Notes: generated from the letters alone by a model not told the origin. A stretch of DNA of 64,000 nt from Candidatus Eiseniibacteriota bacterium (GCA_041946735.1 JBHGAY010000002.1:102368-166367); one strand, 5' to 3'; counted from the first letter of the stretch, positions 33,000-58,065 are shown. Numbers and translations: made by a program.

Positions 33000-33947
33000 T
33001 CAGGCCTTCAGCTTGGTGGCGCGCGTGTCGGCGGCCGCCTTGCGGCGCTCCGAGGCGAGGGTCATATCCAGGGCGAGCGCCGACGCCACGAAGACGGAGG
33101 AATAGGTGCCGAACCCGACGCCGATCAGCATCGCGAAGGCGAAGTCGTGGATCACCCGCCCGCCCATGAAGAGCAGCGCCTCGATCGTGAAGATCACCGT
33201 CAGCCCCGTGATGATCGTGCGGCCCAGGGTCTGGTTGATCGCGAGATCGAACAGGGCCGCGTCCGGCGCCCGCCCGCTCCCCTTCAGCCTCTCGCGGATC
33301 CGGTCGAAGACGACGATCGTGTCGTTGATCGAATATCCGCCGATCGTCAGCAGGGCCGCGATGATCGGGATCGTGATCTCCTTGTTCGTGAAGGAAATGA
33401 ACGAGAGGATCACGAGCGTGTCGTGGGCGAGCGCGGCGACGCCCCCGAGCGCAAACTTGAACTCGTAACGGACCCCGACGTAGATCAGGATTCCGGCCAG
33501 CGACAGCAAAACCGCCCACAACGCCTTGCCCCGAAGCTCCTTGCCGACCCGCGGACCGACGACCTCCTCACGAAGCAGATCGCTCTTGATGCCTGGGAAA
33601 TCGGCCTGGATGGCCTCGGCCATCTTCTCCGACGGAGCCTTCTCTCCGGCCTGTCGCTCCTCGCCAGTCGGGATGCGGATCAGGAAGTCCTTGCCTCCCT
33701 CGCTCGACTGGATCTCGGCGTCGGACCATCCTGCATTGGCCAACGACGACCGCAGAGCGTCCGCCTCGAGGGCCCGATCGAAGCGGAACTCGATCAGCGT
33801 GCCACCCGCGAAGTCGACCCCCATCCGGAAGCCACCGTGCGCGATGACCGAGATCGCTCCCGCGAGGATGATCGCGAGAGAGAAGACGTAGGCGTACTTC
33901 CGGTTCTGCATGAACGGGACTCGCGCCCCATGCAACACCTGCAACAT
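33000..33947 (-). CDS. secF: protein translocase subunit SecF
   Basis: 315 aa. The protein reads ...VDFAGGTLIEFRF...SINDTIVVFDRIRE...FGTYSSVFVASALAL. Confidence 0.9.
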   Translation of the reverse strand: MLQVLHGARVPFMQNRKYAYVFSLAIILAGAISVIAHGGFRMGVDFAGGTLIEFRFDRALEADALRSSLANAGWSDAEIQSSEGGKDFLIRIPTGEERQAGEKAPSEKMAEAIQADFPGIKSDLLREEVVGPRVGKELRGKALWAVLLSLAGILIYVGVRYEFKFALGGVAALAHDTLVILSFISFTNKEITIPIIAALLTIGGYSINDTIVVFDRIRERLKGSGRAPDAALFDLAINQTLGRTIITGLTVIFTIEALLFMGGRVIHDFAFAMLIGVGFGTYSSVFVASALALDMTLASERRKAAADTRATKLKA

Positions 33948-33983: not shown

Positions 33984-35573
33984 TCAGATCGAAATGCTCT
34001 TGGCCTGGCGCCGCGCGAGGAAGGTCTCGAAGATCATCCGCGCAACGAAGACGGCCGTGTACATGTTGGCGATCAGGCCGATTCCGAGCGTGATCGCGAA
34101 TCCCTTGATCGGCCCGGTCCCGAACCGGAAGAGGATGAGCGAGCTGATCAACGTGGTCAGGTTCGAGTCGAGGATCGTCCGCCAGGCTCGATCGAATCCG
34201 TTCTCCACGGCCAAGCGCGACGATTTCCCCGCACGCAGCTCCTCCCGAATTCGTTCGAACACGAGGATGTTCGCGTCGACGGCCATGCCCACCGTCAGCA
34301 CGATCCCCGCGATGCCGGGCATCGTCAGCGTGCCGCGCAGCGCGGCCAGCCCGGCGAAGAGGAAGAACATGTTCAGCAGGAGCGTGAGGACGGCGATCAT
34401 GCCGCTCCCGCGATAGTAGATGAGCATGAACAGGACGACGATGATCGATCCGACGATCCCGGCACGAACGCCGCTGGCGACCGAGTCCTTCCCAAGCGAC
34501 GGGCCCACGGTGCGCTCCTCGACGATCCGGACGGGAGCGGGAAGGGCGCCTGCCCGGAGCACGATTGCCAGGTCCTTCGCCTCGGCGTCGCTGAACCGGC
34601 CGGTGATCTGCGCCTGACCGGTCGGAATGCGGTCCTGGATCACCGGCGCGGAGGCCACCTTGTTGTCGAGGACGATCGCGAGCTGCCGGCCGATGTTCGC
34701 GCCGGTCACCTTGCGGAACGTCGAGGCCCCCTTGTTCGTCATGGTCATCGAGACGCCGGGCGCGTTCGGGTTGCGCGGATCGAGACCGAACTTCATCACC
34801 GCGGTCGAGATCGCCTCTCCCGTCATCTCGGGACGGCGGTTCATCACGAAGAGGATCCGGCCCGTGCGACCCTGCTCGAACTGCTCGGGATCGGAGCTGA
34901 AGCCGATCGAGGCGTCGCGCGGCAGCACCTGATCGAGATCGACGTTGGCCAGGAGCGCCTGGACCTTCGGGAAGTCCTCCTCGAGGATCTCCGCTCCGCC
35001 TTGCGCGAGGTTGGGGTAGTCCCACAGAAGGTCGGTCAAGGGGTTCGCGGCCTGCGTCGAGTCGGGGAGCAAGGAGTCGGGCAGGGCATCGGACCGTCCC
35101 GCGAGGGACCGGTTCAGGCGCTCGATCGCCTGGCGGGCCTCGGCCGGCTGCTTGACGAGCTTGAACTCGAGCACGGCGGTCTGGCCGATCAGCTGCACCG
35201 CGCGGTCCTTGTCGAGGAGACCGGGGAGCTGCACGAGGATGCGGTCTTCCCCTTGCTTCTGGATGATCGGCTCGGCGACGCCGAACTGGTCGATCCGGTT
35301 GCGCAGGACTTCCATGGCCCGGTCGACCGCTTCGGACACCTGGGCTTGCGACGGGAGATTCGTCCGGTCCACCTCGAGCAGCAGGTGCATGCCGCCGACG
35401 AGGTCGAGGCCGAGCTTCAGCGCCTTCGAACGGAGGTTCTTCGCCTCCGGATCCCTGCTCGTATACCGCTCCGAAGCCGGCATGCTGTAGAGCTGGAAGC
35501 TCGGAAGCAGCGAGTAGATCGCGAGCCCCAAGAGCACCGCGAGCAGGACCAACTTCCACGTGTTACTTTTCAT
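33984..35573 (-). CDS. secD: protein translocase subunit SecD
   Basis: The protein reads MKSNTWKLVLLAVLLGLAIYSLLP...LGLDLVGGMHLLLEVD... with the SecD periplasmic and TM domains. ATG at 35573; the ORF track begins 12 codons earlier. Confidence 0.9.
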   Translation of the reverse strand: MKSNTWKLVLLAVLLGLAIYSLLPSFQLYSMPASERYTSRDPEAKNLRSKALKLGLDLVGGMHLLLEVDRTNLPSQAQVSEAVDRAMEVLRNRIDQFGVAEPIIQKQGEDRILVQLPGLLDKDRAVQLIGQTAVLEFKLVKQPAEARQAIERLNRSLAGRSDALPDSLLPDSTQAANPLTDLLWDYPNLAQGGAEILEEDFPKVQALLANVDLDQVLPRDASIGFSSDPEQFEQGRTGRILFVMNRRPEMTGEAISTAVMKFGLDPRNPNAPGVSMTMTNKGASTFRKVTGANIGRQLAIVLDNKVASAPVIQDRIPTGQAQITGRFSDAEAKDLAIVLRAGALPAPVRIVEERTVGPSLGKDSVASGVRAGIVGSIIVVLFMLIYYRGSGMIAVLTLLLNMFFLFAGLAALRGTLTMPGIAGIVLTVGMAVDANILVFERIREELRAGKSSRLAVENGFDRAWRTILDSNLTTLISSLILFRFGTGPIKGFAITLGIGLIANMYTAVFVARMIFETFLARRQAKSISI

Positions 35574-35822
35574 CTCTTCTCCCGCCTCTGGGGCGCCCGA
35601 CGCGTACAAACCACAACAAACAAAGAGGCTAGGCTGTTCCCGCCGAGGGTGTCAATGCAAAACGACGGCGATCGCGGCGCGCTGGCAGCCCCGAAGCGAG
35701 GACGGGCACCTCGATGGTGGGCGGACGGCCTGAATGCCCCGCGAAGCCGGAATCAATCGGACACCCGGCGCCCTAAGCGCGGCGAGCCGAGGGCGCAGCA
35801 ACCCAGCGAGGGGAGCAGGCCA

Positions 35823-35859
35823 AGAGAAAAGGGTGGCCGGTTTGGAGAACCGGCCACCC
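35823..35859 (-). terminator. intrinsic terminator of the OMP-lipoprotein operon
   Basis: A perfect 10-bp stem (gggtggccgg-tttggagaa-ccggccaccc) is followed on the minus strand by UUUUCUCUUG. Confidence 0.6.
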
Positions 35860-35996
35860 GAGAATGGAGGACACCGCCGTCCGGGGACCGGCGGAGCGCA
35901 GAGTCAGGCCAGCGAGGCGGACGGACGCTGGCCGGTCCCGGCCAGCTGCATCTCTCGCTCGCGCTCAGGCCAGGCCGGGCCAGGCTAGGCCGTCGA

Positions 35997-36629
35997 TCAG
36001 GACTGCTGGCGCGCCGCAACGAGACCGATCGGACGGTCCACCCAGCGCACGATTTTCCAGATGTTGCCTGTCTTGGCGAAGTAGAGATCTGCCTGGTCGC
36101 CGCTGACGAGATACCGGAGGTTCTCGCCGCTCTGCGACTGCCGTGTGTCGACGTAGAGGTTGACCCCGGTCAGCTGGACCTTCTGCCAACCCGGATTCAC
36201 GTCGTTGGCCGGCGTCGGCGTCCCGGCGTCGAAGCTCAGCTCGATGGTCTCGGCGATGTAGCCGTCGTGGTTCGGCTCGGACTTGCTGAACATGTTGCGG
36301 GTGGCCACCATTTCGTCGTCGAATCCCCACGACGGCGGGATGTTGTCGTCTCCCCCGACGTCGTTGGGATCGAAGATGTACTCGAAATCGTAGGCGTCCC
36401 CGCCTTGGGAGTGGCCGAGAAGCTTCTCGTATTCATCGGGATTCATCTCGACGTACGCCTTCTTCAGGTTCTGAAGCACGTTGGTGATCGTCGTCTGCTC
36501 CAGATACCCCGTGTTGCCTCCGTCGTCCGGTTTCTTGGAGTCGGTGCTCCACGGACAGCCGGACAGGCCGAACAGCACGGGAAGGAACAGGACGATCAGA
36601 AGGAACTGAGTTGGACGTCGGATTCTCAT
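35997..36629 (-). CDS. lipoprotein, paralog A (unknown function)
   Basis: MRIRRPTQFLLIVLFLPVLFGLSGC carries a lipobox. It shares blocks with the next gene (NLKKAYVEMN vs NLKAATEERV; YFAKTGNIWKIVRW vs YFKQDGLSWLIARW). Confidence 0.6.
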   Translation of the reverse strand: MRIRRPTQFLLIVLFLPVLFGLSGCPWSTDSKKPDDGGNTGYLEQTTITNVLQNLKKAYVEMNPDEYEKLLGHSQGGDAYDFEYIFDPNDVGGDDNIPPSWGFDDEMVATRNMFSKSEPNHDGYIAETIELSFDAGTPTPANDVNPGWQKVQLTGVNLYVDTRQSQSGENLRYLVSGDQADLYFAKTGNIWKIVRWVDRPIGLVAARQQS

Positions 36630-36732
36630 CGGTATCTCTCCTCGGACGCCAGTGTCACCTGTCGAAACCACTCGATTCTAGCACATGGCCATGTCTGTCT
36701 CACGCCCCCGCCGCCGCCCGGATCCACCCGTC

Positions 36733-37293
36733 TCAACTTCCGAGATTCGGGTTCAAGCGGGCGTATCCCCAGGTGGGCAGATTCGGGTCGTCCCGCTTGT
36801 CCGCCCAGCGGGCGATCAGCCAGCTCAGCCCATCCTGCTTGAAATACAACGTGCAACGTCCTTGAAAGACGATGCTGTCGGCCGTCGCCGGCCGGTAGAC
36901 GAGGCGGTACCCCAGGTCCTGGTAGTAGACCAGATCACCGGCCACGCCGGAGTCCCGGACCGTCCAGGTTAGCTGGGCCGGCATGTCGTTGCGATACAGC
37001 TCGGTCATCGCCTGGATATCGCGGCTCATCGTCCATAGGGTGTCGTCGCCCGCCGCATCGAAGGTGTCGAAGCGAAAGACGTATCCATCGGCAAGCGACT
37101 GCTGGAATCCGCTGATCACTCTCTCTTCGGTCGCCGCCTTGAGGTTCTGGAGGGCGATCCGGGTATCGGTCGGCGTCTTCCAGCTTCCCGAATCCCCGGT
37201 GGGATTCTCCGCGTCCCGCAAGTCGAAGAGGCAGCCGCTGATGGCCACGCCGGCGGCCACGACGAGCGCGCCGAAGGCGAACCCGCGGGCCAT
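36733..37293 (-). CDS. lipoprotein, paralog B (unknown function)
   Basis: MARGFAFGALVVAAGVAISGC carries a lipobox. ~25% identical to paralog A over its full length. Confidence 0.6.
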   Translation of the reverse strand: MARGFAFGALVVAAGVAISGCLFDLRDAENPTGDSGSWKTPTDTRIALQNLKAATEERVISGFQQSLADGYVFRFDTFDAAGDDTLWTMSRDIQAMTELYRNDMPAQLTWTVRDSGVAGDLVYYQDLGYRLVYRPATADSIVFQGRCTLYFKQDGLSWLIARWADKRDDPNLPTWGYARLNPNLGS

Positions 37294-37356
37294 CCGGCGC
37301 CGCCGCAACGGCCACCCGCCCCGAACCACAGCGCCGCCCGTGCTCGTCCGCATGGC

Positions 37357-39363
37357 CTAGAAGTCCCTCCGGATCTGCGCGGTGATCGTCCAGTAGTCGC
37401 GTTCCGTCATCGATTCGGTCTTCGCGAAGGAGCCGGTCAGATGGAACGTGTCGGAGAAATCGTGAGTCATGTCCGCGCGCACGGAGAACTCGCCGCGATC
37501 GGTGGCCGTCAGCCGGTTGCTCGCCAGGGCGCGCGTCTCACGACGCTCGAACTTCTGGCGCGCCTCGAGGCGTAGGCCCTGCCCGAGCGGGTAGGAGCTG
37601 GCGAGCGTCATCGCGTGCCTCGTCTCCCTCGTGGCCGGCTGATAGTACCGTGCGCCGTTCGGGTCGGAACGCACGTACTTTCCCGAATCGCGGAACTGGT
37701 ACTCGTGCACGAATTGCATGGCGAGCCGCTCGCCGAGCCCGCTCACGAAGGTGGTCACGACGCCGTTGGTCCGCACGAGCGTGTTGTTCGACTCCTCGAA
37801 GACGTACTCCGTGTAGTCCGCTTGAATCGTGTAGCGCTGGCTGAGGTTCAGCTTTCCCCGCGTGTATCCCAGCTCGCCGGAGATACGGTAGGTCTCGGTC
37901 GTGTTGTTCTGCCCGGCGCGCGCGCCGGGAACGTTCACGAGCTGGCGCTGGCCGTAGTTGACGTTGAAGATGCCGTTCCACATCGACGACGGGCGATAGT
38001 TGAGCGAGGCGTCGGTCACGGTGCGCTTCTCGTCGCGGTCGTTGGCGCGATCGTCGTAGTAATACTGCAGCAGCGTGATCTCCTCGCTCCCCTGCAGCTG
38101 GATCTTGGTGCCGAGGTTCCTCCGGACGACCCCGCGGAACTTGCGGTTCACCTGCCGGAAGCCGACCGTCTCCTGAAGCCGGTTCTTCGCTTCGTCGGAG
38201 GAGAGGGTGGCCTGGAGATCGGTGCCGGCCAGCAGCTTCACGAACTCCGGGATCTTCCACTTGGCGTCGAGCTGCCCTCTCGTCGTCAGCTTGCGGAAGT
38301 CCTTCTCCTGCATCTGATAGTCGCCGGACACCTCCCCGCGCTCGACCTCCCCCTTGAACTCGGAGCCGGTGTTCGGCTTCCAGCTGAGGCTCATCCGCGC
38401 GTTCTTGTCCCGCCCGTCCTTTCCTTCCATCGCTCCCTGGCTGTTGAACGCCTGGGTGTCCCAGTACTGGGTGAAGTCGTGGACCCAGCGGCCGGTCAGA
38501 TTGCCGGTCACAGTGCTGCTCGGGGCCCAATCGACCGCGGACTCCCAGTGCTGTGAAACGTCGTCGGAGGGGGAGTTGAGCTCGAACCGCCGTTGTCCGC
38601 TGGTGACGTCGTACTGCCGCGTGCGCGAATCGCCCGCCCGGGTCTCGCGGCGCATCGTCGTGCTCGTCCGGAACTTGCTCACGTTGCCGCTGAGAACCAT
38701 CTCATAGCGGCGGTAGGAGCCGTCCACCTTGACCGAGTCGCGGAAGGCCGTGCGCCGGCTCATGTTTCTCTCTCCGTCATAGCCGAAGCTCGCCTTCGTC
38801 GTGAGACCGAAGCCGGCCATCGGAGCGAGGAATCGGTGCAGCATCTGCTCGGGAAGCTTGGAGGCCACGGCGAGGCCGAGGCTCGTGCGATTGTTGACCT
38901 GGTCCTGATACTTGGAGAGCTGCGATTGACGGCCGAACTGTCCGTCGACCCCGACGGTCAGCCCGCCCAACCCCTTCATCGCGTAGTCGAGCTTGAGATT
39001 CATCGTCCCGCGGCGGCCGCGGAGGTCGTTCTGCGACGTGTCGCGACGATTGTTCAGGCTCCAGTCGTTCGTTAGCGAGAGGCCGGCAACGCGCCGGTAG
39101 ATGCCGAGCGACTGGTCCCAGGACCGCGAGGATCGGTTGACGGTGTAGGTGCTCGAGTAGCTCGGGTGGAAGTCGATCCGGTCGAGGAAACGGTCGCTCG
39201 GAGCGGCGGGCCGGGCGGGCGGGGGAGCCGGTTCGGCGGGAGGCTGGGTCTGGCCGAACACCGGGTCGCCGGCCGCCATCAGGGCGAGAAGCCCCGTGCC
39301 GGCGAGGAGGTAGCGGAGTGCGGAGTGGATGGGTGAAGCCTCCCTCGAGATCCCGTCTGCCAA
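37357..39363 (-). CDS. outer-membrane β-barrel protein of unknown family (~668 aa)
   Basis: A signal-like N-terminus (...SALRYLLAGTGLLALMAAGDPVFGQ). The TTG at 39363 is a tentative start. Amphipathic β-strands alternate with Y/R/N/S/T-rich loops. The C-terminus ...ITAQIRRDF ends in an aromatic residue. Confidence 0.6.
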   Translation of the reverse strand: MADGISREASPIHSALRYLLAGTGLLALMAAGDPVFGQTQPPAEPAPPPARPAAPSDRFLDRIDFHPSYSSTYTVNRSSRSWDQSLGIYRRVAGLSLTNDWSLNNRRDTSQNDLRGRRGTMNLKLDYAMKGLGGLTVGVDGQFGRQSQLSKYQDQVNNRTSLGLAVASKLPEQMLHRFLAPMAGFGLTTKASFGYDGERNMSRRTAFRDSVKVDGSYRRYEMVLSGNVSKFRTSTTMRRETRAGDSRTRQYDVTSGQRRFELNSPSDDVSQHWESAVDWAPSSTVTGNLTGRWVHDFTQYWDTQAFNSQGAMEGKDGRDKNARMSLSWKPNTGSEFKGEVERGEVSGDYQMQEKDFRKLTTRGQLDAKWKIPEFVKLLAGTDLQATLSSDEAKNRLQETVGFRQVNRKFRGVVRRNLGTKIQLQGSEEITLLQYYYDDRANDRDEKRTVTDASLNYRPSSMWNGIFNVNYGQRQLVNVPGARAGQNNTTETYRISGELGYTRGKLNLSQRYTIQADYTEYVFEESNNTLVRTNGVVTTFVSGLGERLAMQFVHEYQFRDSGKYVRSDPNGARYYQPATRETRHAMTLASSYPLGQGLRLEARQKFERRETRALASNRLTATDRGEFSVRADMTHDFSDTFHLTGSFAKTESMTERDYWTITAQIRRDF

Positions 39364-39525
39364 GCCCGCCGTTGCCGGATCGGTCCGATGCCTGCATCCG
39401 TTTCTGGCTTCGGCCGGCAAGGCGCGGTGGTTCACGTTACGGAGCTTTCCTCTCCCGATCAAGCCACGCTCCTCAAGGAGTTCCGGTCCCCAGCCGATGA
39501 ACCCTGGGGAGTTCCCGGGGGAGCT

Positions 39526-41016
39526 ATGACACCAGAGCGAGTCCGTCTGTTCCGTCTCCGTCCCGAAAATCGACGCATTCTCGAGAACGCTCTCGACCGG
39601 CTGGGATGGCCGGGCACGTACGAGGAGCCCGGAGCGGCGGAGCATGAGGACGACGGGGCGCTCTCCTCCCGGCAGGCCGGCGACGCGGGTCGGAGCGGAG
39701 GCGGCCGCCTGGCCGATCCCCAGGGAGGCGGCATCGAGCTGTGGGTCCGGGAGCCGGGCGGGATCGCTCCTCCCGTGTCGGACTGCCCCACGCTCTGGAT
39801 CGTCGAGCGCCGCGTCGCCGGCTTCTGGCCGGCCGGCCCGGGCCCTCATGAGATGGTGCGGATGCCGGCGAGCCAGGAGGAGATCGTCCATCGCCTCCTC
39901 GCGCTTCTCCAGACGGTGAGGCGCGAGCGAACGATCGCTCGCTACGAGAGGGAGGCCGCCCTCAATCTCGATCGCAAGCTCGGCCTGGTCCGCGCGATCG
40001 CCCACGATCTCGTCTCCCCCCTGACCGCCGTCCTGGAGTACCTGGAGCTTCTTGCGGATGGAACGTGCGGCGAGACGACAGAGCAGCAGCACGGCCTGCT
40101 CCTCGAAGCGCGCAGCGCTGCCCGGCGCGTGATCGATCGGGTGGACGAGATGGCCGATGCGGCGCAGGCGGAAGCCGGCCGGCTGCTACGCGTGCGCCTG
40201 CGGCGGACCGACCTGCAGGAGATCCTCGACGGCCTGCAGGAATGGTCGGTCCCGCGGCTGCGCGGGAAGCGACAGCAAGTGACGATCCAGATCGAGCGCC
40301 AATGCCTGGTGGTCTGCAGCGACGCGGAGAGGGTGGAGCAGGCATTCCGGCATCTGGTCGAGAACGCCCACCGGTTCTCCCCGCCGGGGACGCGGATCTC
40401 CATCGCCGCTGGCGCGGACCCCGAGGCGATCGGGTACGCGCGGGTCACGGTCGCGGACGAAGGGCCCGGAATTCCGCCGGACCGGCGCGATCGCCTCTTC
40501 GATCCCTTCCCGCGTCGCGAGGGCACGGAGGCGTACGAGAGCGCGCGCGTCGGCGTCGGGCTCGCGATCTCCAGGGCGATCGCGGTCGCCTCCGGAGGGG
40601 AGCTGTGGATCGAGAACCCGCCGCTGGGGGGAACGCGCGTCGCGATGCGCCTTCCGCTGTGGGGCTCGCGCGCCGCGCGAATCGCGCAAGCGCAAGCGCG
40701 CCTCGCCGGCGCGCTGGATCTTCCCGCGAGCGCCTTGGTCGGCGTCGCTCGCCGTGCGCCCGTCGCGCAGGGACCCGCCTTCGAGGGCTTCCCGTTCCGC
40801 TTGAGCCCCGGCGAGCTTCTCGTCGTCGCTCCCCGCTTCGGCTCGGGCGTCCTCGTGCTCGGGACGGTGCGGGACTTCCGGAAAGCGGGCTCGCTCGAGC
40901 GGGTCCTGTCGCCTCGCATCACGATCCACCCGATGGAAGCGCCGGAAGCGGAAGCGCCGGAAACGCCCGAAACCCCCGAAACCCCCGAAACGCCCGAGGC
41001 GCCGATCACGACGTAA
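39526..41016 (+). CDS. cytoplasmic sensor histidine kinase with an N-terminal receiver-like domain
   Basis: The H-box is AIAHDLVSPLTAV; the N/G boxes are VENAHRFSP, VADEGPGI and GVGLAISRAIA. There is no TM segment. The C-terminus carries (ETP) repeats. The alternative start at 39388 has weaker codon bias. Confidence 0.8.
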   Translation: MTPERVRLFRLRPENRRILENALDRLGWPGTYEEPGAAEHEDDGALSSRQAGDAGRSGGGRLADPQGGGIELWVREPGGIAPPVSDCPTLWIVERRVAGFWPAGPGPHEMVRMPASQEEIVHRLLALLQTVRRERTIARYEREAALNLDRKLGLVRAIAHDLVSPLTAVLEYLELLADGTCGETTEQQHGLLLEARSAARRVIDRVDEMADAAQAEAGRLLRVRLRRTDLQEILDGLQEWSVPRLRGKRQQVTIQIERQCLVVCSDAERVEQAFRHLVENAHRFSPPGTRISIAAGADPEAIGYARVTVADEGPGIPPDRRDRLFDPFPRREGTEAYESARVGVGLAISRAIAVASGGELWIENPPLGGTRVAMRLPLWGSRAARIAQAQARLAGALDLPASALVGVARRAPVAQGPAFEGFPFRLSPGELLVVAPRFGSGVLVLGTVRDFRKAGSLERVLSPRITIHPMEAPEAEAPETPETPETPETPEAPITT

Positions 41017-41091: not shown

Positions 41092-43611
41092 CTATGGCAG
41101 CCGGACGATCCTCTCCGTCCTCGTGACGGCGCCCGCTGTCACCCGGCAGAAGTAGATCCCCGACGGGGCGCGGCGCCCTGCGTCATCCCGGCCGTCCCAG
41201 AGGACCTCATGCATTCCGGCGCCTTGCTCAGAACCCTCTCCTAGCGAGCGGACTCTCCTTCCCGAGAGATCGAGCAGATCGACCTGCACCGGCATCGGGC
41301 GGGCGATCTCGTAGTGGATCGACGTCGTCGCATGGAACGGGTTGGGGCCCGCGGGGAAGAGCTTCAGATCGTCGAACGGGCGGATCGCCGGCTCCCCGAC
41401 CGCGGTCTGGCCGGGAACGAAGAGCGTCACGTCGTCGATGTACCATCCCTCCCCCGTCGGCTCCTGCCCGCGCGTGCCGAACCGGAAACGGAAGGAGAGG
41501 ATCTGCCCCGCGTACGCCTCGAGAGGGACGACGACCGGCGTCCAGTCGAAGGATCCCGACCAGAGAGGGGTGCCGGTCACGAACGGGACGACCGTGAAGC
41601 GCCGCCAGACGTGGTCGTAGCCGCCTTCGATCGGTTGCAGCGTGAACCAGCTGGCGCCCGAGTCGGTCGAAGCCTCGAGGATGCCGCCGTCCCCGGCCGT
41701 CGAATCGTCGACCGCGTAGGCGTCCATCCAGTGCCAGAAGATCAGTCGAGACCCGTCGGGGACGCGGACGAGCGGCGATTGCAGGTAGGCGTGGATCCGG
41801 GTTCCGTACGGGCCGTCACCGGCGTCCCCGCACTTGTACGAGGTCTGCCCGCCGTCCGTATGGTTGCGCTGCTGGCTCAGGTGCCAAGCGTCGGTGTATC
41901 CGACGGTCAGGGAATCGTGCCTCCACTCGGCCGCGCTCGGGCCCTCGAACCCCTCCTCGATCGAGGCGACGAGGTCCGATGCGAGGACGACGGAGCGGTT
42001 GGCGTTCACGCGTCCCCATCCGAAGTACATGTCCCAGCCGGGGGAATCCTCGTTGGGCGGGCCGACCTGATCCTCGGCCCCCTCCTCGAGCATCGCGCGC
42101 ACCTGATGGGCGTCGAGCGAGGGCGCGGCGCTCCAGATCAAGGCGCAGATGCCGGCCGTGAGCGGTGTGGCCGACGAGGTGCCGTTGAACGTCGTCGTGT
42201 AGTTCGTGCCGCTGTAGCCGGCGACGCCGGTCCGGTCGGTCGTGGTGATCTTGACTCCCGGCGAGATCACGTCCAACTCGGCGCCGTAGTTGCTGCCCCA
42301 GAAGTTCTCGCCGTCGCAGGAGGTGTAGCTCTTGCGCTGGTCGCACGGGCTGCTCGCGCCGCACGCGATCGTCTCCGGATAGCGAGCGGGATAGTTGACG
42401 TCGTTCGCGTTGGAGTTGCCCGAAGCGAAGACCATGATGCAGTCGAGCGCGTCGGCGTTGATGACCGCGTCGTGCACCGCGGTGAAGTCCCCCGACGACA
42501 TCCGCCACGAGCAGGACATGACGAGCCCCGTGAACTCCGCGCGCCGGCTGGCCGCATAGTTGATCGCGTCCGCGCGATTCTGGTTCATTCCGGAGCCGAG
42601 ATCGACGCGCAGCGGCATGATCCGGCAATGCGGCGCGATGCCGCTGACGCCGAGGGAGTTGTCCTGGACGGCGGCGGCGATTCCCGAGCAGCACGTGCCG
42701 TGCGCGTCCTCGTCGTCGGGGCTGCCGTCGGGACCGTTCGCGAAGTCCCAGTCCTCGCCGTTGCGGGGGAGGAAGTTGTCGCGAAGGTCCTCATGGTTCA
42801 AGTCGGCGCCCGTGTCGATCACGGCGATGATGACGTTCGGGTCTCCCTTCGTGATGTCCCAGGCGAGCGGCGCCTCGACGTCCGCCCCTGGCGTTCCGCC
42901 TCCTTGTCCCGTGTTGTTCTCGGACCACTGCTGCGGGAAGAGCGGATCGTTCGGGATGCTCAGCGCATCGTCCCAGAGCAGATAGGACGGTTCGGCGAAC
43001 AGCACCTCCGGGTCGGCGTAGAGCCCGCGAACCGCCGCGAAGACGGACAGTCCCGGAGGAAGGACGATCGTGTAATAGCCGGGCGTCCAGTGATCCTCCA
43101 GGACCGAGGCGCCGAACGCATGGATCTTCTCGATGCACCGCTCCGGGGAGACGCCCGAGCGGTAGCGGACGGTCGCCTCTCCCTCGAGGTAGTACTTCGT
43201 GAACCCCTCGGCGTCGATCACGGCCGGGATCGCCGACGCGACGCCCACCTCGGCGCGGAGACGCGGCGCCAGGTCCGCCGGGGTCGTGGCGCGCGACACG
43301 CGATAGACGGCCGCGCGGGTCTCCGGATCGAGAGGATGGACGGGGACGAGGCCGTAGCGGTTCTCGACGATCTCGCGATCGAGACTGCTCGCCGCGCGGT
43401 CGTACCGGACGAGGATCTCCTCGGTCGATTGCCGCAGATCCCATGGCTTGCCGAAGCGTGTGTCGAACCAGCTCCCGTCGAAGGAGGCGGCGGGCGAGGC
43501 GGCCGCCACGCCGGTGAGCAGAGCAGCGACGAGCAAGGCGCGGCGTAGCGGGACGAGCGAAGACACGGAATTGGTGCGGCGGGAAGGCAGCAGGGCCCCT
43601 CGGTCGGACAT
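41092..43611 (-). CDS. subtilisin-family (S8) serine protease with a T9SS-type C-terminal sorting domain
   Basis: The catalytic triad lies in VIAVIDTGAD, HGTCCSGIAAA and GTSSATPLTAG. The C-terminus is ...VQVDLLDLSGRRVRSLGE...VLWDGRDDAGRRAPSGIYFCRVTAG...IVRLP. Confidence 0.85.
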   Translation of the reverse strand: MSDRGALLPSRRTNSVSSLVPLRRALLVAALLTGVAAASPAASFDGSWFDTRFGKPWDLRQSTEEILVRYDRAASSLDREIVENRYGLVPVHPLDPETRAAVYRVSRATTPADLAPRLRAEVGVASAIPAVIDAEGFTKYYLEGEATVRYRSGVSPERCIEKIHAFGASVLEDHWTPGYYTIVLPPGLSVFAAVRGLYADPEVLFAEPSYLLWDDALSIPNDPLFPQQWSENNTGQGGGTPGADVEAPLAWDITKGDPNVIIAVIDTGADLNHEDLRDNFLPRNGEDWDFANGPDGSPDDEDAHGTCCSGIAAAVQDNSLGVSGIAPHCRIMPLRVDLGSGMNQNRADAINYAASRRAEFTGLVMSCSWRMSSGDFTAVHDAVINADALDCIMVFASGNSNANDVNYPARYPETIACGASSPCDQRKSYTSCDGENFWGSNYGAELDVISPGVKITTTDRTGVAGYSGTNYTTTFNGTSSATPLTAGICALIWSAAPSLDAHQVRAMLEEGAEDQVGPPNEDSPGWDMYFGWGRVNANRSVVLASDLVASIEEGFEGPSAAEWRHDSLTVGYTDAWHLSQQRNHTDGGQTSYKCGDAGDGPYGTRIHAYLQSPLVRVPDGSRLIFWHWMDAYAVDDSTAGDGGILEASTDSGASWFTLQPIEGGYDHVWRRFTVVPFVTGTPLWSGSFDWTPVVVPLEAYAGQILSFRFRFGTRGQEPTGEGWYIDDVTLFVPGQTAVGEPAIRPFDDLKLFPAGPNPFHATTSIHYEIARPMPVQVDLLDLSGRRVRSLGEGSEQGAGMHEVLWDGRDDAGRRAPSGIYFCRVTAGAVTRTERIVRLP

Positions 43612-43834
43612 CCATTCCCCCCTTTTGCCGGGTGCATCGGCGGTTTGCGCTCCCCCAGGCGAAGGAGAGCGCCGGTCAGTCCAGGACGGCCGTGGTTCCG
43701 TAGTCGTTCAATTGTAGTGGATCTCGGGACCTCCGGCAAGGAGGCGGGCCCTCGTGCGAGCCTTCGCGCGGGCCTCGTGCGGGCCTTCGCTCGTCCCACC
43801 GCCGATTCCCGGAGGCGCCGTCTCGCTGCTGCGA

Positions 43835-45406: not shown

Positions 45407-46140
45407 GCCTCCGCCCTGGCTCCGAGCTTGCGCTCCGCGATGAGCCGGTTCGCGCGGTAGAGGCTCTCGAACGTCCCGGCGTCGGTCCAGAAGCCGCGCA
45501 GGAAGTCGAACGACATCATCCCGCGCTCGATGTAGGCGTTGTTGACGTCGGTGATTTCCAGCTCGCCGCGGGCGGACGGCTCCAGCGTCCCGATGATCTC
45601 CCAGACCCAGTCGTCGTAGAAGTAGACGCCGGTGACCGCATAGCTCGAGCGCGGGCTCGCCGGCTTCTCGACGATCCGCACGACACGGTCTCCCTCCAAC
45701 TCGGCGACGCCGAACCGCTCGGGGTCGGGAACTTCCTTGAGAAGAATCTTCGCGCCGGCCTTCTGCTTGCGGAACGATTCGACGTGCGGGGCGATGTCGT
45801 CCTCGAGGATGTTGTCGCCGAGGATGACGACGATCCGGTCCCCGCGACCGTAGTAGCGGGCGAGACCGAGCGCGTCGGCGATGCCGCCGTTGCCTTCCTG
45901 GTAGACGTAGTCGATGTGGGTCAGGCCGAGGTGCTTGCCGTTGCCGAGGAGGCGGACGAAGTCGCCCGCGTTGTTGTCGCCGGTGACGAGGATCAGGTCC
46001 TTCACGCCCGCCCGGACCAGAGTCTCGATCGGGTAGTAGATCATCGGCTTGTCGTAGATCGGCAGCAGATGCTTGTTCGTCACCTTGGTGAGCGGCGCGA
46101 GCCTGGTGCCCAGTCCCCCAGCCAGAACGACCCCTCGCAT
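45403..46140 (-). CDS. rmlA: glucose-1-phosphate thymidylyltransferase-like sugar nucleotidyltransferase (short form)
   Basis: The protein reads MRGVVLAGGLGTRLAPLTKVTNKHLLPIYDKPMIYYPIETL... (a G-x-G-T-R-L motif). GGAGGAG RBS; ATG at 46140. Confidence 0.8.
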   Translation of the reverse strand: MRGVVLAGGLGTRLAPLTKVTNKHLLPIYDKPMIYYPIETLVRAGVKDLILVTGDNNAGDFVRLLGNGKHLGLTHIDYVYQEGNGGIADALGLARYYGRGDRIVVILGDNILEDDIAPHVESFRKQKAGAKILLKEVPDPERFGVAELEGDRVVRIVEKPASPRSSYAVTGVYFYDDWVWEIIGTLEPSARGELEITDVNNAYIERGMMSFDFLRGFWTDAGTFESLYRANRLIAERKLGARAEA

Positions 46141-46180
46141 CGGTTCTCCTCCTCGCGCGCGAACGCTTGGCGCCGGTACC

Positions 46181-46220
46181 CCCACGGCCGATCACGGATT
46201 CCCACGGCCGGTCACAGATT
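46181..46220. promoter_or_regulatory. 20-bp tandem direct repeat (candidate operator) in the divergent rmlA/clpC promoter region
   Basis: The two copies are cccacggccgatcacggatt | cccacggccggtcacagatt, 18 of 20 identical, 41-80 nt upstream of the rmlA ATG. Confidence 0.4.
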
Positions 46221-46456: not shown

Positions 46457-48958
<2,502 letters not shown>

Positions 48959-48988
48959 CCCGTCCGGCGGCGATCCGCCGATTGCCGG

Positions 48989-50002
48989 TCAGCGAAGCGA
49001 CGGCCCGGCGGCGCTCGCCAGGGCGCGGGCGAGCGCGGCGAAGGCCGCGAGATCGAGCGTCTCGGCCCGCCGCGTCGGATCGATCCCCGCCTCGGAGAGC
49101 ACGCGCGCCGCGAGCGCCCCGTCGCCCAGAGCCGACCGGAGGGCCGCGCGCAGCATCTTGCGCCGCTGCCCGAACGCGGCCGCCAGCGCCTTCTCCAGAT
49201 CGCGCGGATCGCCGGCATCGACCGGCGGCTGCGGATGGAACCGCAACCCGATCAGCGTGGAGTCGACTTCGGGGACCGGCCAGAACGAGCTGGGGCCGAC
49301 GCTGGCGAGCTTCTCCACCGCGGCATGATAGGAGACCCACACGGTGAGGCTGCCGTAGGTGCGCCCCCCGGGCGAAGCGAGCAGCCGGGCGGCCACTTCC
49401 CGCTGCACCAGGAACGCGGCGCGCGAGAACGAGGCGCGGTGCTCCAAGGTCCAGAGGAGGATCGGCGTCGTGATCGCGTACGGGAGATTCCCCGCGAGGA
49501 AGAGCGGCGAGGATCGAGGCGTCCAGCCGCTGGCGCCGGCGCCGTCGCCGTCGCTGGCTTCGCCGTCGTGGCCGTCGCTGGCGGCCGCGCGGCCAGGAAG
49601 AGCGCACGGATCGAGATCGAGGATGCTCCCCTCGAGGAGGTGAAGCCGGCCCGCCGTGATCTCCGGCGCGAACCTCTCGCGCAGGAGCGCGGCCAGACGC
49701 GCGTCGACCTCGACCGACCAGACGCGCGCAGGGCGTCCGGACCCGGTCGCTGGCGGATCGAGAAGCGCTCGGGTCAACGATCCCGCGCCCGCCCCGATCT
49801 CGAGGACGTCGCTGCCCTCCGCGATCTTCATCGCGCGCACGAGGCGGCCGGCCGCGGCCGGATGCACGAGGAAGTTCTGGCCGAGCCGTTTGCGCGGCGT
49901 CACGCCATGGGCGCGCAGCCAGGCCCGCTCCGACGCCGAGCCCTCGCCGCCGCGGCCGCCTTCGATGCCGGCGTCGTCGCCGCCGGCGCCGCCCGGGCTC
50001 AT
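48989..50002 (-). CDS. rsmA: 16S rRNA (adenine1518/1519-N6)-dimethyltransferase
   Basis: The LGQNFL motif, the SAM-binding VLEIGAGAGSLT, and the NLPY motif are present. It has an acidic low-complexity insertion (AASDGHDGEASDGDGAGASG). The ATG at 50002 overlaps the tatD stop (ATGA). Confidence 0.85.
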   Translation of the reverse strand: MSPGGAGGDDAGIEGGRGGEGSASERAWLRAHGVTPRKRLGQNFLVHPAAAGRLVRAMKIAEGSDVLEIGAGAGSLTRALLDPPATGSGRPARVWSVEVDARLAALLRERFAPEITAGRLHLLEGSILDLDPCALPGRAAASDGHDGEASDGDGAGASGWTPRSSPLFLAGNLPYAITTPILLWTLEHRASFSRAAFLVQREVAARLLASPGGRTYGSLTVWVSYHAAVEKLASVGPSSFWPVPEVDSTLIGLRFHPQPPVDAGDPRDLEKALAAAFGQRRKMLRAALRSALGDGALAARVLSEAGIDPTRRAETLDLAAFAALARALASAAGPSLR

Positions 50003-50781
50003 GCGCGATCGGCGGGGTCGGCGGGGAGGTGGAAGAGGCGGATCGCGTTGGAGTCGGTCACGCGCTCGACCTCCTCGATCCCGACCTGGAGGGAATCGGC
50101 GATGGCGGCGGCGATCTTCGGAATGTTCGCCGGCTCGTTGCGATCGTTGCGTCTCGGATGGGGCGTGAGGTAGGGGCAGTCGGTCTCGAGCACCATCCTC
50201 TCGAGGCCGACGGCGCGCAGCAGCGGTCCGCTCTTCTTGGGGCTGTAGGTGACGGAGCCGCCGAAGCCCAGGAGAAATCCGAGATCGCCGGCCCTCTTCG
50301 CGATCGCCTCGTCCCCGGAGAAGCAGTGCAGCACGCCGCGAACCGCTCCGCGCCCCTCCTCCTCGAGGATGCGCAGGACGTCCTCATGGGAAGCGCGGGC
50401 ATGGACGACGAGCGGCAGCCCCGACTCGCGCGCGAACTCCACGTGCCGGCGGAAGAACGCCTGCTGCACGTCGTGCGGCGCGTAGTTGCGGTAGTAGTCG
50501 AGCCCGGTCTCGCCGATCGCCACGATCTTCGGGTCGGGGAGCGCGGCGAAGAGGCGTTCGAGATCCGCGAGCGAGGCGGCGCCGCTGTCGTGCGGATGGA
50601 TTCCGGCCGAGAGGACGATCCGCGGATCGGCGGCGGCCAGCTCCCTCGCCTTCGGCCAGTCCGCCGCGCTGATGTTCACCTCCAGGAGCGCGCGGCCTCC
50701 CGCCTCCCAGTAGCGCCGGAGCACGGCGTCGCGGTCCTTGTCGAAGGCGGACGCGTGGACGTGCGCGTGCGTGTCGATCAT
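49999..50781 (-). CDS. tatD: TatD-family metal-dependent hydrolase / DNase
   Basis: The protein reads MIDTHAHVH..., ...GETGLDY..., ...HCFSG..., ...ETDCPYL. 260 aa. The ATG overlaps the PSP1 stop (ATGA). Confidence 0.85.
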   Translation of the reverse strand: MIDTHAHVHASAFDKDRDAVLRRYWEAGGRALLEVNISAADWPKARELAAADPRIVLSAGIHPHDSGAASLADLERLFAALPDPKIVAIGETGLDYYRNYAPHDVQQAFFRRHVEFARESGLPLVVHARASHEDVLRILEEEGRGAVRGVLHCFSGDEAIAKRAGDLGFLLGFGGSVTYSPKKSGPLLRAVGLERMVLETDCPYLTPHPRRNDRNEPANIPKIAAAIADSLQVGIEEVERVTDSNAIRLFHLPADPADRA

Positions 50782-56220: not shown

Positions 56221-56245
56221 CCCACCCCCGGGGACGCGCGCCGGA

Positions 56246-57649
56246 TCACGGGTTCCGGCGCACCTCCACGAACGTCTTGTTGCGAAGCTCGGCGATGTAC
56301 GCCTCGAGCTTCTTCTGTCTCTCGTCGCGCTCCACCATCGCCCGAAGCTGGTCGCGGACCTCGTCGAACGTATAGTCGGTCTCCGCCTGCTCCCCGAGGA
56401 GCTTGAAGAGGTGGAATCCTCCCTCGACCTTGGCCGGGCGACTGATCTGGCCGACCCGCAGCGAATCGACCGCCCCCTGCGTGTCGCCGAGGAAGTTGTC
56501 GATCGGCAACCAGCCGACATCGCCGCCGGTCTGGCGCGTCGCCGGGTCGTCGGAGTACTTCCGCACCGCTTCGGCGAAATCGATCGCCCCCGAGACGATC
56601 TCCTTGCGGATCTCGTCGACGCGAGCGCGCGTGCGCGACTCGTCGCTCCGGGTCGGCGTGATCTTCACGAGGATGTGCCGCACCTGCGCCCAGGCCCCCG
56701 AGCTGTCCCGGTCCATGACCTGGATCAGGTGGTAGCCGAGGTTCGTACGGATCGGACGGCTCACTTCGCCGATCGGGAGCGTGAAGGCGCGCGACTCGAA
56801 GTTGCGATCTCCGAGATCGCCGGGACCGAAGCGGCCGAGCAGGCCTCCCTGATCGCGGCTGTTCTCGTCGTCGGAGTAGCGGCGGGCGGCTTCGTCGAAC
56901 GCGAGGCCCTTCTGGATCTCCTCGTAGATGTCCTGCGCCTTCTGGCGGTAGGTGCGCTCGATCGTGCTGTCCGGGCTGATCCGCACGAAGAGGTCGAGCA
57001 CCCGAAGGGCGCGTGGCTTCTTGCCGATGTCCCCCTTGTGCTCCTCGAACTGCTTCTGCACGTCGGCGTCGCTGACGACGATCTTCGAGAAGATCTCGCG
57101 CTGGAGGAGCTGGCGGCGCAGGTAGTCCTTGCGGGCTTCGTCGGTGTAGCGCTTGCGGAGATCCGCCTCGGTGATCCCTTCCTTCTGGAGCTGCTTGGCG
57201 AAGCCGTCGGCGCCGAGCCGCTGGCGGTCCCCCTGGATCGCCTCGTCGACCGCGCGCTGGATCGCCGCTTCGTCGACCTTGATCCCCTTCGCCGCCGCCT
57301 CCTTGTCGAGGAGCAGCTCGCTGATCATGTTGTCGAGGATCTGGCGGCGCAGCTCGTTCGCCTGGGACGTGTCGTTCGGATCGACCTGGAACTGAGGGGC
57401 GAGCATGCCGAACTGCTCTTCCACCTCGGAGCGGAGGATCGGATGATCTCCCACGACCGCCGCCACACCGTCCGCCACCTTCGCGGGCGCCCCAGCCGTC
57501 CCGGCCACACCTGCAGCGCCGGCCGCCGGCGCGCTCTGGGGCTGATTCCCCGCCTGAGCCTCGCCGTCGGACGGCAGCGACAACAGGAAACCAGCCGCCG
57601 CCAGCAAGGCGATCCCGAGGAAACTCCGGGACCTGTTCGAAATCCGCAT
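56246..57649 (-). CDS. surA: periplasmic chaperone / peptidyl-prolyl isomerase SurA-like (two parvulin domains)
   Basis: The signal peptide is MRISNRSRSFLGIALLAAAGFLLSLP. The parvulin motifs are DQGGLLGRFGPGDL and TGGDVGWLPIDNFLGD. ORF-track residues 1-102 are junk. Confidence 0.8.
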   Translation of the reverse strand: MRISNRSRSFLGIALLAAAGFLLSLPSDGEAQAGNQPQSAPAAGAAGVAGTAGAPAKVADGVAAVVGDHPILRSEVEEQFGMLAPQFQVDPNDTSQANELRRQILDNMISELLLDKEAAAKGIKVDEAAIQRAVDEAIQGDRQRLGADGFAKQLQKEGITEADLRKRYTDEARKDYLRRQLLQREIFSKIVVSDADVQKQFEEHKGDIGKKPRALRVLDLFVRISPDSTIERTYRQKAQDIYEEIQKGLAFDEAARRYSDDENSRDQGGLLGRFGPGDLGDRNFESRAFTLPIGEVSRPIRTNLGYHLIQVMDRDSSGAWAQVRHILVKITPTRSDESRTRARVDEIRKEIVSGAIDFAEAVRKYSDDPATRQTGGDVGWLPIDNFLGDTQGAVDSLRVGQISRPAKVEGGFHLFKLLGEQAETDYTFDEVRDQLRAMVERDERQKKLEAYIAELRNKTFVEVRRNP

Positions 57650-58065
57650 CCTTCCTCTCCTACCTCTCCCCATCATGGAGAAGCCCACCAGGACAGGCAT
57701 CCGCCGATCCCTCGGGCTTTTCCGTTGCGTACGATATCCCGCGCTCGCTGGCGGGGGCAAATACTCCCTGTGCGACTGTCCGGCCATGGGCGACCGCTTC
57801 TGCCGATCCATGGGCATTCCGCGCCGATCCTTGCGGACTGCGGCACCCCGATGCAGATCGCGGCCGGAGCCGCCGAGCGCCTTGCAGCGTGCACGCGGCC
57901 GTAGCCAGTCCGGCACAGGCGGACCGCAACCTACCCGCGAACTTCGTTTCTTCATGCGACTTCGGTGATCGGCCCCCGTGAACAGGGCCTGGCAGACCTC
58001 TTGCTTCCGGGATTTCGTGCCTCGATCGGTTTTTGGCTAGGGGCCCGAGAGCAGAGGAGCGAGTC

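Follow-up and report, generated by a model that had tools for sequence, protein, structure and literature searches.

A minus-strand operon in a 64,000-nucleotide window (the whole stretch of DNA analysed) from a Candidatus Eiseniibacteriota bacterium encodes a predicted outer-membrane β-barrel, then lipoprotein B (lipoB), then lipoprotein A (lipoA), and is followed by an intrinsic terminator. A soluble histidine kinase gene is divergent from it. The three open reading frames, here called the triad, and the terminator lie where the first-pass annotation of this DNA had placed them (Table 1).

Table 1. Features of the triad and its surroundings, in window coordinates
Feature	Position	Strand	Remarks
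secF	33000..33947	-	conserved downstream neighbour of triad
secD	33984..35609	-	conserved downstream neighbour of triad
intrinsic terminator	35823..35859	-	stem 35859..35831, then T-run; closes operon
lipoprotein A, 210 aa	35997..36629	-	ATG 36629, lipobox LSGC; NTF2-like by paralogy; ~25-aa insertion; motif FDPNDVGGDDNIPPSWG
sigma-70-like match, candidate internal promoter	36675..36703	-	GTGAGA-17-TAGAAT with TG, in 103-nt lipoB-lipoA spacer
lipoprotein B, 206 aa	36733..37353	-	lipobox AISGC; predicted NTF2-like cone fold; post-Cys tether; C-terminal TWGYARLNPN
outer-membrane β-barrel (predicted), 668 aa	37357..39363	-	signal peptide, Pro-rich linker, 28 predicted strands
divergent intergenic region, barrel/kinase	39364..39525	.	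162 bp
soluble histidine kinase	39526..41016	+	HisKA + HATPase_c; ~150-aa N-terminal and ~110-aa C-terminal regions without family
ksgA/rsmA	48989..50002	-	context gene
tatD	49999..50781	-	context gene

Operon signals. The barrel stop lies 3 nt from the lipoB ATG in the window, the two overlap or are 0-3 nt apart in nearly all loci, and the lipoB ribosome-binding site (GGAGGG) sits within the 3′ end of the barrel gene. The best lipoA start has the ribosome-binding site GGAGAGA; the frame stays open up to GTG 36671. The terminator has a 12-bp stem (9 G-C pairs) with a 5-nt loop, followed by TTTTCTCTT, its tail reading TTTTCTCTTG, and stands 138 nt past the lipoA stop; the strong stem and T-run bear out the earlier call. 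Terminator-like sites across the region show no excess (3, against 2.7 expected from shuffles); the operon's own site is a strong one. The sigma-70-like match in the lipoB-lipoA spacer is the sole one in 5.7 kb (shuffle mean 0.3). The upstream region common to barrel and kinase, previously put at about 160 bp, has its length confirmed; it contains no match to the sigma-70 consensus, and a search of it for regulatory repeats gave weak inverted repeats only. Rfam matched no non-coding RNA element anywhere in the window.

The barrel protein. TTG was taken as the start codon because no other in-frame start retains the signal peptide seen in orthologs. The signal peptide is followed by a Pro-rich linker of ~30 aa and then by the predicted strands, over residues 68-667, and the protein ends in ...IRRDF, with the terminal aromatic residue noted before. 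AlphaFold2 models it confidently (pLDDT 92.5, pTM 0.82), with 28 strands by DSSP, a count which, like closure of the barrel, is read solely from the DSSP string and the pTM of a single-chain model. Non-strand segments reach 16 residues at the longest, extracellular loops have at most 9 residues, and the model has neither a periplasmic domain nor a plug, as the first-pass annotation had said of the latter. Hydrophobic and polar faces alternate in all 28 strands. With its signal peptide, amphipathic strands and C-terminal aromatic β-signal the protein is thus assigned to the outer-membrane β-barrels in general and is, on the model, among the widest single-chain barrels yet predicted. A circular 28-strand barrel would have a C-alpha diameter of ~50 Å, a free lumen of ~39 Å (~4 nm) and a free lumen volume of roughly 43,000-55,000 Å^3. 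One 150-aa domain is estimated by geometry at ~20,000 Å^3 and a diameter of ~34 Å, therefore two such domains would roughly fill the lumen. Conservation is lower at positions that face the lumen (0.27) than at those that face lipid (0.37), which leaves no obvious conserved surface for docking within the barrel.

The two lipoproteins. LipoA is identical to NCBI ACE15D_01915 (P0004). Both proteins have a lipobox, and its Cys is invariant across 36 aligned homologs. The paralogy proposed earlier is upheld by BLASTP (27% identity, E=8e-12). The motif DPNDVGGDDN, which had been ascribed to both, is confined to lipoA, the corresponding stretch of lipoB reading FDTFDAAGDD; what they have in common is the pattern FDP.D....D..W...D...A...(M/L)(F/Y). 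The AlphaFold2 model of lipoB has NTF2-like secondary structure with a core pLDDT of ~96, and Foldseek matched it in the PDB to NTF2, SnoaL and KSI folds (E ~1e-7, TM ~0.7 normalised to target). There were 470 PDB matches at E<=1e-3, and the matches listed are all NTF2, SnoaL, KSI or designed NTF2-type proteins. By its model, then, lipoB has the alpha+beta cone fold of the NTF2-like superfamily (SnoaL, ketosteroid isomerase, CaMKII hub, DUF4440-type) and belongs to it at the level of fold only: identity is just 12-19%, no Pfam family matches, and the triad lipoproteins differ in being lipidated, tethered, TWGYARLNPN-tailed and fixed beside a barrel gene. The same fold is assigned to lipoA through its paralogy with lipoB.

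After the lipidated Cys, lipoB continues in a tether (C-G-L-F-D-L-R-x-P-E-x-P) whose conservation is among the highest in the protein: C41, F43 and R46 are invariant, and G40, E49, P51 and others are conserved at 90% or more. The pLDDT of the tether is low in the monomer model (58-73); a segment that is conserved yet modelled so poorly is typical of one that would become ordered upon contact with a partner. LipoA and the distant pairs at loci L017 and L018 carry a related pattern, C-x-F-[DS]-x-[RKE]-x-P. The last strand of lipoB is invariant on both faces, W178 and R182 on one side and W183 and D185 on the other, which is consistent with a buried interface other than the cone pocket. LipoA-like paralogs elsewhere in the same MAG adjoin a DUF5916/CBM9 protein and a 258-aa protein; the latter may be a small barrel, too narrow to hold a lipoprotein. 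Kinship of the triad barrel with the DUF5916 barrel was rejected by BLASTP and by hhalign (probability 1.3%). A metagenome scan with one lipoA paralog (P0005) found no relatives.

Family searches. None of the three proteins matched Pfam or NCBIfam, and profile searches of PDB sequences gave no match, so the earlier statement that the barrel has no recognisable family holds, for both lipoproteins as well. The window barrel had no Pfam or NCBIfam match at E<=1, and its 65 relatives had none at E<=0.01, LptD and MtrB/PioB signatures included; generic, sub-threshold OMP_b-brl matches were seen in 9 of the 65. A sub-threshold STN match in the barrel (15 bits, against a cut-off of 28.4 bits) falls within the signal peptide. 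A known porin or DUF family is ruled out by these searches, and since the linkage is conserved (below), the reservation attached to the first-pass annotation, that the barrel might be a known porin and the lipoproteins common DUFs without conserved linkage, does not apply. Literature searches on the Eisenbacteria outer membrane and LptD, on DUF5916, on NTF2-like lipoproteins with a barrel and on 28-stranded barrels did not find this system. The three proteins are without a family name, and an NTF2-like fold as a barrel partner is previously undescribed.

Conservation and neighbourhood. Barrel, lipoB and lipoA stood in this order on one strand in all of the roughly 22 distinct loci with enough flank, which answers the question raised earlier of whether homologous triads co-occur elsewhere. 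These include lineages whose SecD is 46-47% identical and whose barrel is 23-25% identical. The triad is seen once per locus and is without exception embedded in a block of housekeeping genes (tatD–ksgA–triad–yibQ/pdxJ–secDF), with surA, ftsE, an M23 peptidase gene, tatD and ksgA ahead of it and secDF after it. In distant relatives tatD and ksgA are directly upstream of the barrel gene, ksgA overlapping it, and yibQ and pdxJ come after the triad. In the window a ClpB-like gene, an S8 protease gene and the kinase gene stand between tatD/ksgA and the barrel. The kinase, S8 protease and ClpB-like genes, yibQ and pdxJ vary among loci; the order and tight coupling of the triad persist. The triad is apparently a core, vertically inherited gene set of Eisenbacteria and relatives, and its housekeeping surroundings, which are vertically inherited, suggest a core role in the envelope rather than an accessory system. 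The entire chromosomal region is syntenic in these lineages, and inertia could therefore account for some of the conservation of order. Many proteins with FlgD_ig tails are encoded near the triad.

The operon had been described as less GC-rich than its neighbours. GC z-scores are indeed negative (lipoA -2.3, lipoB -1.2, barrel -0.9), but those of secDF and DUF4159 (-0.8 to -1.4) are just as low, and GC3 of the triad is ordinary (0.84-0.90, mean 0.88, within the window range). It is codon positions 1 and 2, and hence the amino-acid composition, that account for the low GC. Horizontal acquisition was rejected, since GC3 is normal and synteny is kept across deep divergence.

The histidine kinase. 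Pfam found HisKA (E=1.3e-7) and HATPase_c (E=3.5e-23), identifying a histidine kinase as predicted. Its N-terminus had been called receiver-like. A receiver domain there is doubtful: Pfam gave none at E<=1, and hhalign against the response regulator of locus L010 gave a probability of 0.4%, over residues 1-28 only. A stretch resembling GxxDFLxKP (GPHEFxRLP) can be made out by eye. The kinase neighbours the triad, its orthologs likewise being divergent from it, in a single Eisenbacteria clade (the window, L001, L004, L009, L010, L011 and L030) and is missing beside the distant triads (L017-L021). The H-box reads AHDLVSPL in the window copy and is lost in the L009 and L011 orthologs, and the H-box histidine and G-boxes are missing from several orthologs. 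The description of the kinase as an orphan is correct for this genome, but L010 and L030 have a single-domain response regulator gene after it. Lacking a DNA-binding output, a regulator of this type gives no ground for assuming that transcription of the operon is directly controlled, and the one-clade linkage and the lost boxes leave the suggested regulation of the operon by the kinase doubtful.

We tentatively favour the reading that the three genes may encode one core plug-and-barrel outer-membrane complex, in which two lipoproteins would fill or gate a 28-strand sheath. In architecture such a complex would be like LptD/LptE and MtrB/MtrA-MtrC. The barrel would be a sheath without a plug or long loops of its own; lipoB and lipoA, encoded in fixed order and translationally coupled to it, would sit in or on its lumen as a gate, with N-terminal tethers that are conserved but intrinsically unstructured docking on the barrel. 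Single-chain barrels of at least 22 strands with solved structures, as far as we compared them (TonB-dependent transporters, ushers, LptD, MtrB, SprA), are occluded by their own plugs or by partners. We infer physical association, lumen occupancy and stoichiometry; transport direction and substrate are guesses, our best guess being a conduit that would serve envelope biogenesis or export, not inducible nutrient uptake or display. Of the earlier interpretation, the uncharacterised barrel with two paralogous lipoproteins stands, while the surface exposure and the uptake or display role gain no support. The lipoA-like paralogs that adjoin unrelated proteins, one of which, if a barrel, would be too narrow, suggest that this lipoprotein family can act peripherally, not as a plug.

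A TonB-independent uptake channel under control of the kinase, the lipoproteins acting as surface substrate-binding lids, would resemble SusCD and BtuBG in that an outer-membrane barrel is encoded with partner lipoproteins. We consider it unlikely, since the barrel is without plug, TonB box or STN domain (no match to Plug, PF07715, or TonB_dep_Rec, and 28 rather than 22 strands), its short loops are unlike those of ligand-binding transporters, and the lipoproteins have another fold. The context differs too: one triad per locus in a housekeeping block, co-transcribed with ksgA in distant lineages, is unlike inducible loci of the polysaccharide-utilisation type, and the kinase is missing from distant triads, degenerate in several orthologs and, where a response regulator is paired with it, joined to one without a DNA-binding domain. 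The barrel might instead be a translocator sending lipoB and lipoA to the surface, in the manner of Slam (type 11) or of BAM-assisted RcsF-OMP, with the lipoproteins as cargo and end products. Cargo genes adjoin the translocator gene in Slam systems, as in the triad layout, the post-Cys motif in both paralogs and distant orthologs could be an export signal, and elsewhere in the MAG lipoA-like genes stand beside other outer-membrane barrel genes, predicted or possible. We nevertheless judge this very unlikely: there is no DUF560 (PF04575), TPR or periplasmic domain, 28 strands (14 in Slam) far exceed what a flippase-type protein needs, a barrel emptied of cargo would leave a ~4 nm hole, and a two-lipoprotein stoichiometry and order fixed over deep divergence fit subunits better than cargo.

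A further candidate role is that of a glycolipid or lipid translocon replacing or supplementing LptDE, in which the NTF2-like lipoproteins would handle lipid. LptD too is a very large single-chain barrel (26 strands, 28 predicted here) and carries a ~190-aa lipoprotein in its lumen, to which the small lipoproteins of the triad may be likened by analogy; its genes, too, are housekeeping genes. Some NTF2-like domains, that of MlaC for one, are lipid carriers. The E. coli operon is lptD-surA-pdxA-ksgA, and the housekeeping neighbourhood of the triad, with surA, ksgA and pdxJ, echoes it, a resemblance that may be coincidence. Against this, the barrel matches neither LptD (PF04453) nor OstA_N (PF03968), and with ~30 residues between signal peptide and first strand it has no N-terminal β-jellyroll to take LPS from a periplasmic bridge; the lipoproteins do not match LptE (PF04390), and lipoB is predicted to be NTF2-like. 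We regard such a role as very unlikely, together with the equally doubtful idea that there is no complex at all, the barrel being a general porin, perhaps narrowed by oligomerization, and the lipoproteins independent periplasmic NTF2-like enzymes or binders whose order reflects synteny. The syntenic region, the poorly conserved lumen lining and the frequency of enzymes among NTF2-like proteins agree with the latter, but triad order and coupling outlast changes among the flanking genes, an unplugged 28-strand barrel is incompatible with the outer-membrane barrier, and a tether that is conserved yet disordered argues for a partner. More broadly, the triad could represent an unrecognised class of essential translocon that takes over a core biogenesis task in Eisenbacteria and related lineages, either exporting lipid or an LPS-like glycolipid where LptDE would otherwise do so, or passing Sec-exported proteins with C-terminal sorting domains; passage of such proteins would explain the fixed place by secDF and ksgA/pdxJ and the FlgD_ig-tailed proteins nearby. 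We think this broader proposal improbable.

MtrCAB, too, is among the closest known systems, with a partial structural match of the barrel to the MtrB sheath (6r2q_B) at a TM-score of only 0.38. MtrB has 26 strands, not 28; no HMM for MtrB/PioB (PF11854, TIGR03509) matched, and the triad partners are NTF2-like rather than multihaem cytochromes, with no CxxCH and only two Cys in lipoB and one in lipoA. A comparable strand number is found in SlpA of Deinococcus-Thermus, solved at 30 strands in D. radiodurans and predicted at 28 in Thermus (PMC9388160).

Should the lipoproteins plug the barrel, the triad would be a third independently evolved plug-and-barrel example beside LptDE and MtrCAB, and a tangible candidate for the machinery with which these bacteria assemble or traverse their outer membrane. 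Nearly all that is known of outer-membrane machineries comes from Proteobacteria and Bacteroidota, and this triad is from an uncultured phylum. At the least, the triad allows three new protein families to be defined (the barrel family with ~230 clusters at 50% identity) and supplies a synteny that is diagnostic.

The three ORFs of the triad, encoding a β-barrel protein and the lipoproteins B and A (lipoB, lipoA), are arranged head to tail on the minus strand (see the table). The barrel stop codon is 3 nt from the lipoB ATG, and the GGAGGG ribosome-binding site of lipoB lies within the barrel gene. The lipoA ATG at 36629 is preceded by a GGAGAGA ribosome-binding site, and its reading frame is open up to a GTG at 36671. 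The first-pass annotation had described the sequence correctly, since its ORFs, hairpin terminator and divergent kinase were all found. The window comes from a Candidatus Eisenbacteria MAG. At NCBI, ACE15D_01915 and ACE15D_01920 are identical to lipoA and lipoB, respectively, and QUU85_03760 is a partial barrel with 99% identity to that of the window. A sigma-70-like promoter match, the sole one in 5.7 kb, falls in the 103-nt lipoB-lipoA spacer and, judged by its sequence, may allow lipoA to be transcribed from within the operon.

The operon had also been singled out as less GC-rich than its neighbours, and its genes do fall at the low end of the window (z = -2.3, -1.2 and -0.9 for lipoA, lipoB and barrel). 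Since their GC3 is normal and secD, secF and the DUF4159 gene are equally low, the low GC reflects amino-acid composition rather than foreign origin, and we no longer regard it as an anomaly.

Features of the window discussed in the text
Feature	Position	Strand	Description
Barrel	37357..39363	minus	ORF, TTG start, 668 aa
lipoB	36733..37353	minus	ORF, 206 aa
lipoA	35997..36629	minus	ORF, 210 aa from ATG 36629
Operon terminator	35859..35823	minus	12-bp GC-rich hairpin and T-run
Divergent kinase	39526..41016	plus	Soluble, HisKA and HATPase_c; 162-bp spacer to barrel
Sigma-70-like match	36675-36703	minus	GTGAGA-17-TAGAAT with extended TG
lipoA-secD spacer	35610-35996		387 bp, contains terminator
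Conserved barrel motifs	~37765-38062	minus	Residues 434-447, 486-492, 522-533
lipoB C-terminal tail	36733-36780	minus	TWG[YW]ARLNPN
ksgA	48989..50002
surA	56246..57955
FlgD_ig-tailed secreted proteins	5789-8431, 9560-13264, 41092-43611, 62274-63986		Predicted; among them the kinase-adjacent S8 protease and an M28 peptidase
ORF without Pfam match	25563-27263	minus	566 aa
ORF without Pfam match	13295-14314	plus	339 aa
Region without Pfam match	43700-46000		~2.3 kb, between S8 protease and ClpB-like gene

Loci for comparison were gathered by exact-protein look-ups and pattern scans, and the three family HMMs were run on 30 sources (29 loci and the window); one further locus, L030, was read separately from its gene table. 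In every locus with enough flanking sequence, ~22 distinct loci with no exceptions, the order is barrel, lipoB, lipoA on one strand, and the barrel/lipoB junction is overlapping or nearly contiguous almost everywhere. The order holds in close Eisenbacteria (SecD 72-75% and barrel 38-48% identical to the window) and in distant lineages (SecD 46-47%, barrel 23-25%). The first-pass annotation would have been refuted by a barrel from a known porin family and lipoproteins that were common, unlinked DUFs; the unbroken order from close to distant lineages shows otherwise, and none of the three proteins has a Pfam or NCBIfam match. The triad is a real, conserved and unnamed feature, and the general idea of an uncharacterised barrel-lipoprotein system stands. 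In two of the loci, L009 and L010 (ENA ERZ250395xx contigs), barrel, secD and yibQ are each split into several short ORFs, most likely through frameshift errors of long-read assembly rather than as real pseudogenes.

Among 1.84 billion cluster representatives, an exhaustive HMMER profile search picked out 232 relatives of the barrel at E<=1e-3, of which 131 reach E<=1e-10; nearly all are 600-750 aa long. A Pfam scan of 65 of them gave only sub-threshold generic matches (e.g. OMP_b-brl in nine), and the profiles of barrel and lipoB matched no PDB sequence. The AF2 model of the barrel (102-sequence alignment; pLDDT 92.5, pTM 0.82) has a disordered signal peptide and Pro-rich linker (residues 1-55) followed by 28 DSSP strands (residues 68-667), all 28 with hydrophobic/polar alternation and with a polar lumen face rich in T, S, R, D and N. 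Its longest non-strand segment is 16 residues and its presumed extracellular loops are at most nine, which leaves the barrel without a plug, a periplasmic domain or lumen-filling loops. The most conserved motifs, YYDDRANDRDE (D444 invariant, D442 nearly so), NNTTETY and FEESNNTLVRTN, group in the C-terminal half at loops that follow odd-numbered strands, on what is presumably the extracellular rim.

The lipoproteins, which have canonical lipoboxes (LSGC in lipoA, AISGC in lipoB), are 27% identical to each other (E=8e-12). The DPNDVGGDDN motif belongs to lipoA, and the equivalent lipoB site is FDTFDAAGDD; the lipoA loop and the acidic cluster of the barrel are, speculatively, candidate cation-binding sites. 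A lipoprotein profile search gave 35 relatives, none with a Pfam domain, and those few with an organism name are all Eisenbacteria. A lipoB motif scan of GTDB species genomes found four loci, three in named Eisenbacteria and one in an 'uncultured bacterium'. LipoB is modelled by AF2 as an alpha+beta cone (core pLDDT ~96) that matches NTF2, SnoaL, ketosteroid-isomerase and CaMKII-hub folds (E ~1e-7, target-normalised TM ~0.7). By paralogy we assign the same NTF2-like fold, with a ~25-residue insertion, to lipoA. The tether after the lipoB lipobox Cys, C-G-L-F-D-L-R-x-P-E-x-P, is among the best-conserved segments yet unstructured in the monomer model, and lipoA and distant lipoprotein pairs share a related C-x-F-[DS] pattern. 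The last lipoB strand has invariant residues on both faces, and the C-terminal tail is kept in all lipoB orthologs. A similar tail, TWGxIKxxW, is found on P0005 and P0006, which are DUF5916-associated lipoA paralogs, and is absent from triad lipoA.

With 28 strands the barrel would have a C-alpha diameter of ~50 A and leave a free lumen ~39 A wide, with ~43,000-55,000 A^3 of volume; a 150-aa domain, ~34 A in diameter, takes up ~20,000 A^3. In the solved barrels of at least 22 strands taken for comparison, the lumen is blocked by a plug of the same chain or by partner proteins, and a barrel this wide would, if empty, breach the outer-membrane barrier. We therefore propose from the model geometry that barrel, lipoB and lipoA would form one three-part plug-and-barrel complex, with the lipoproteins filling or gating the lumen. 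This is the most economical model because a barrel without occlusion of its own is always accompanied by exactly two globular ~150-aa lipoproteins whose joint volume matches the lumen, and it draws support from the conserved but unstructured tether, the C-x-F-[DS] pattern and the two-faced invariant strand. It would place the triad with the known class of lipoprotein/β-barrel outer-membrane complexes. Against it, the lumen-facing residues of the barrel are less conserved than the lipid-facing ones, and two extra lipoA-like NTF2 lipoproteins stand beside unrelated proteins in L008 (L008:4127-5623, L008:8001-10983), another contig of the same MAG (ACE15D_09810). The gene for one, P0005 (51% identical to lipoA), immediately precedes that of a 756-aa CBM9/DUF5916 protein. 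The second, L008:4979-5623, is directly downstream of the gene for a 258-aa protein that, by eye, may be a small outer-membrane barrel. Given such neighbours the lipoprotein family need not plug a lumen, and across the phylum it may partner outer-membrane barrels more generally.

The triad is embedded in a block of housekeeping genes. The window runs surA, ftsE, M23 peptidase, tatD, ksgA, ClpB-like gene, S8 protease (T9SS-type tail), kinase, triad, secD, secF, DUF4159, DUF4175-like gene; close relatives have ftsEX-M23-holB-PSP1-tatD-ksgA-NTP_transferase-kinase / triad-yibQ-secDF. Distant relatives have ksgA overlapping the barrel gene and, after the triad, yibQ and/or pdxJ; in L017 and L018 secDF then follows. 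The ancestral order was therefore tatD-ksgA-triad-yibQ/pdxJ-secDF, into which the kinase, ClpB-like and S8 protease genes were inserted later. A yibQ-type divergent polysaccharide deacetylase gene separates lipoA from secD in most relatives (e.g. L001:11490-12557); the window and L011 have lost it, and in the window its loss has left the 387-bp spacer. The lptD operon of E. coli is lptD-surA-pdxA-ksgA, and surA, ksgA and a pdx gene recur around the giant barrel here (window 48989-57955; distant triads L018-L021), a notable if circumstantial resemblance. Replacement of LptDE would be an attractive role for the triad; however, the β-jellyroll that defines LptD is absent from the triad barrel. 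The housekeeping context, apparent single copy and deep vertical inheritance speak weakly for a constitutive conduit in envelope biogenesis or export and against an inducible system for uptake or display; the surface display or uptake first suggested is not supported.

Orthologs of the kinase are encoded divergently from the triad in the window, L001, L004, L009, L010, L011 and L030, seven lineages in all, and are missing from distant triads. Within this clade a regulatory link, which the first-pass annotation had envisaged, is possible, but it does not characterise the system as a whole. The kinase is an orphan in the window but not in L010 (4109-5790) or L030 (1226-2973), where it is followed by a single-domain (CheY-like) response regulator not found in the window. 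No receiver domain was detected in the N-terminal region of the kinase, where one had been suggested. The H-box histidine is missing from the L009 and L011 orthologs and ATP-binding boxes are degenerate in several, including L001 and L004, so that in part of the clade the kinase seems, from these sequences, to be degenerating.

Two other ORFs of the window, and a region beside the S8 protease, have coding-like GC3 and no Pfam match. Four large proteins, all predicted to be secreted, carry a FlgD_ig / T9SS type-A-like sorting domain at their end, with the S8 protease reaching the TIGR04183 cut-off.
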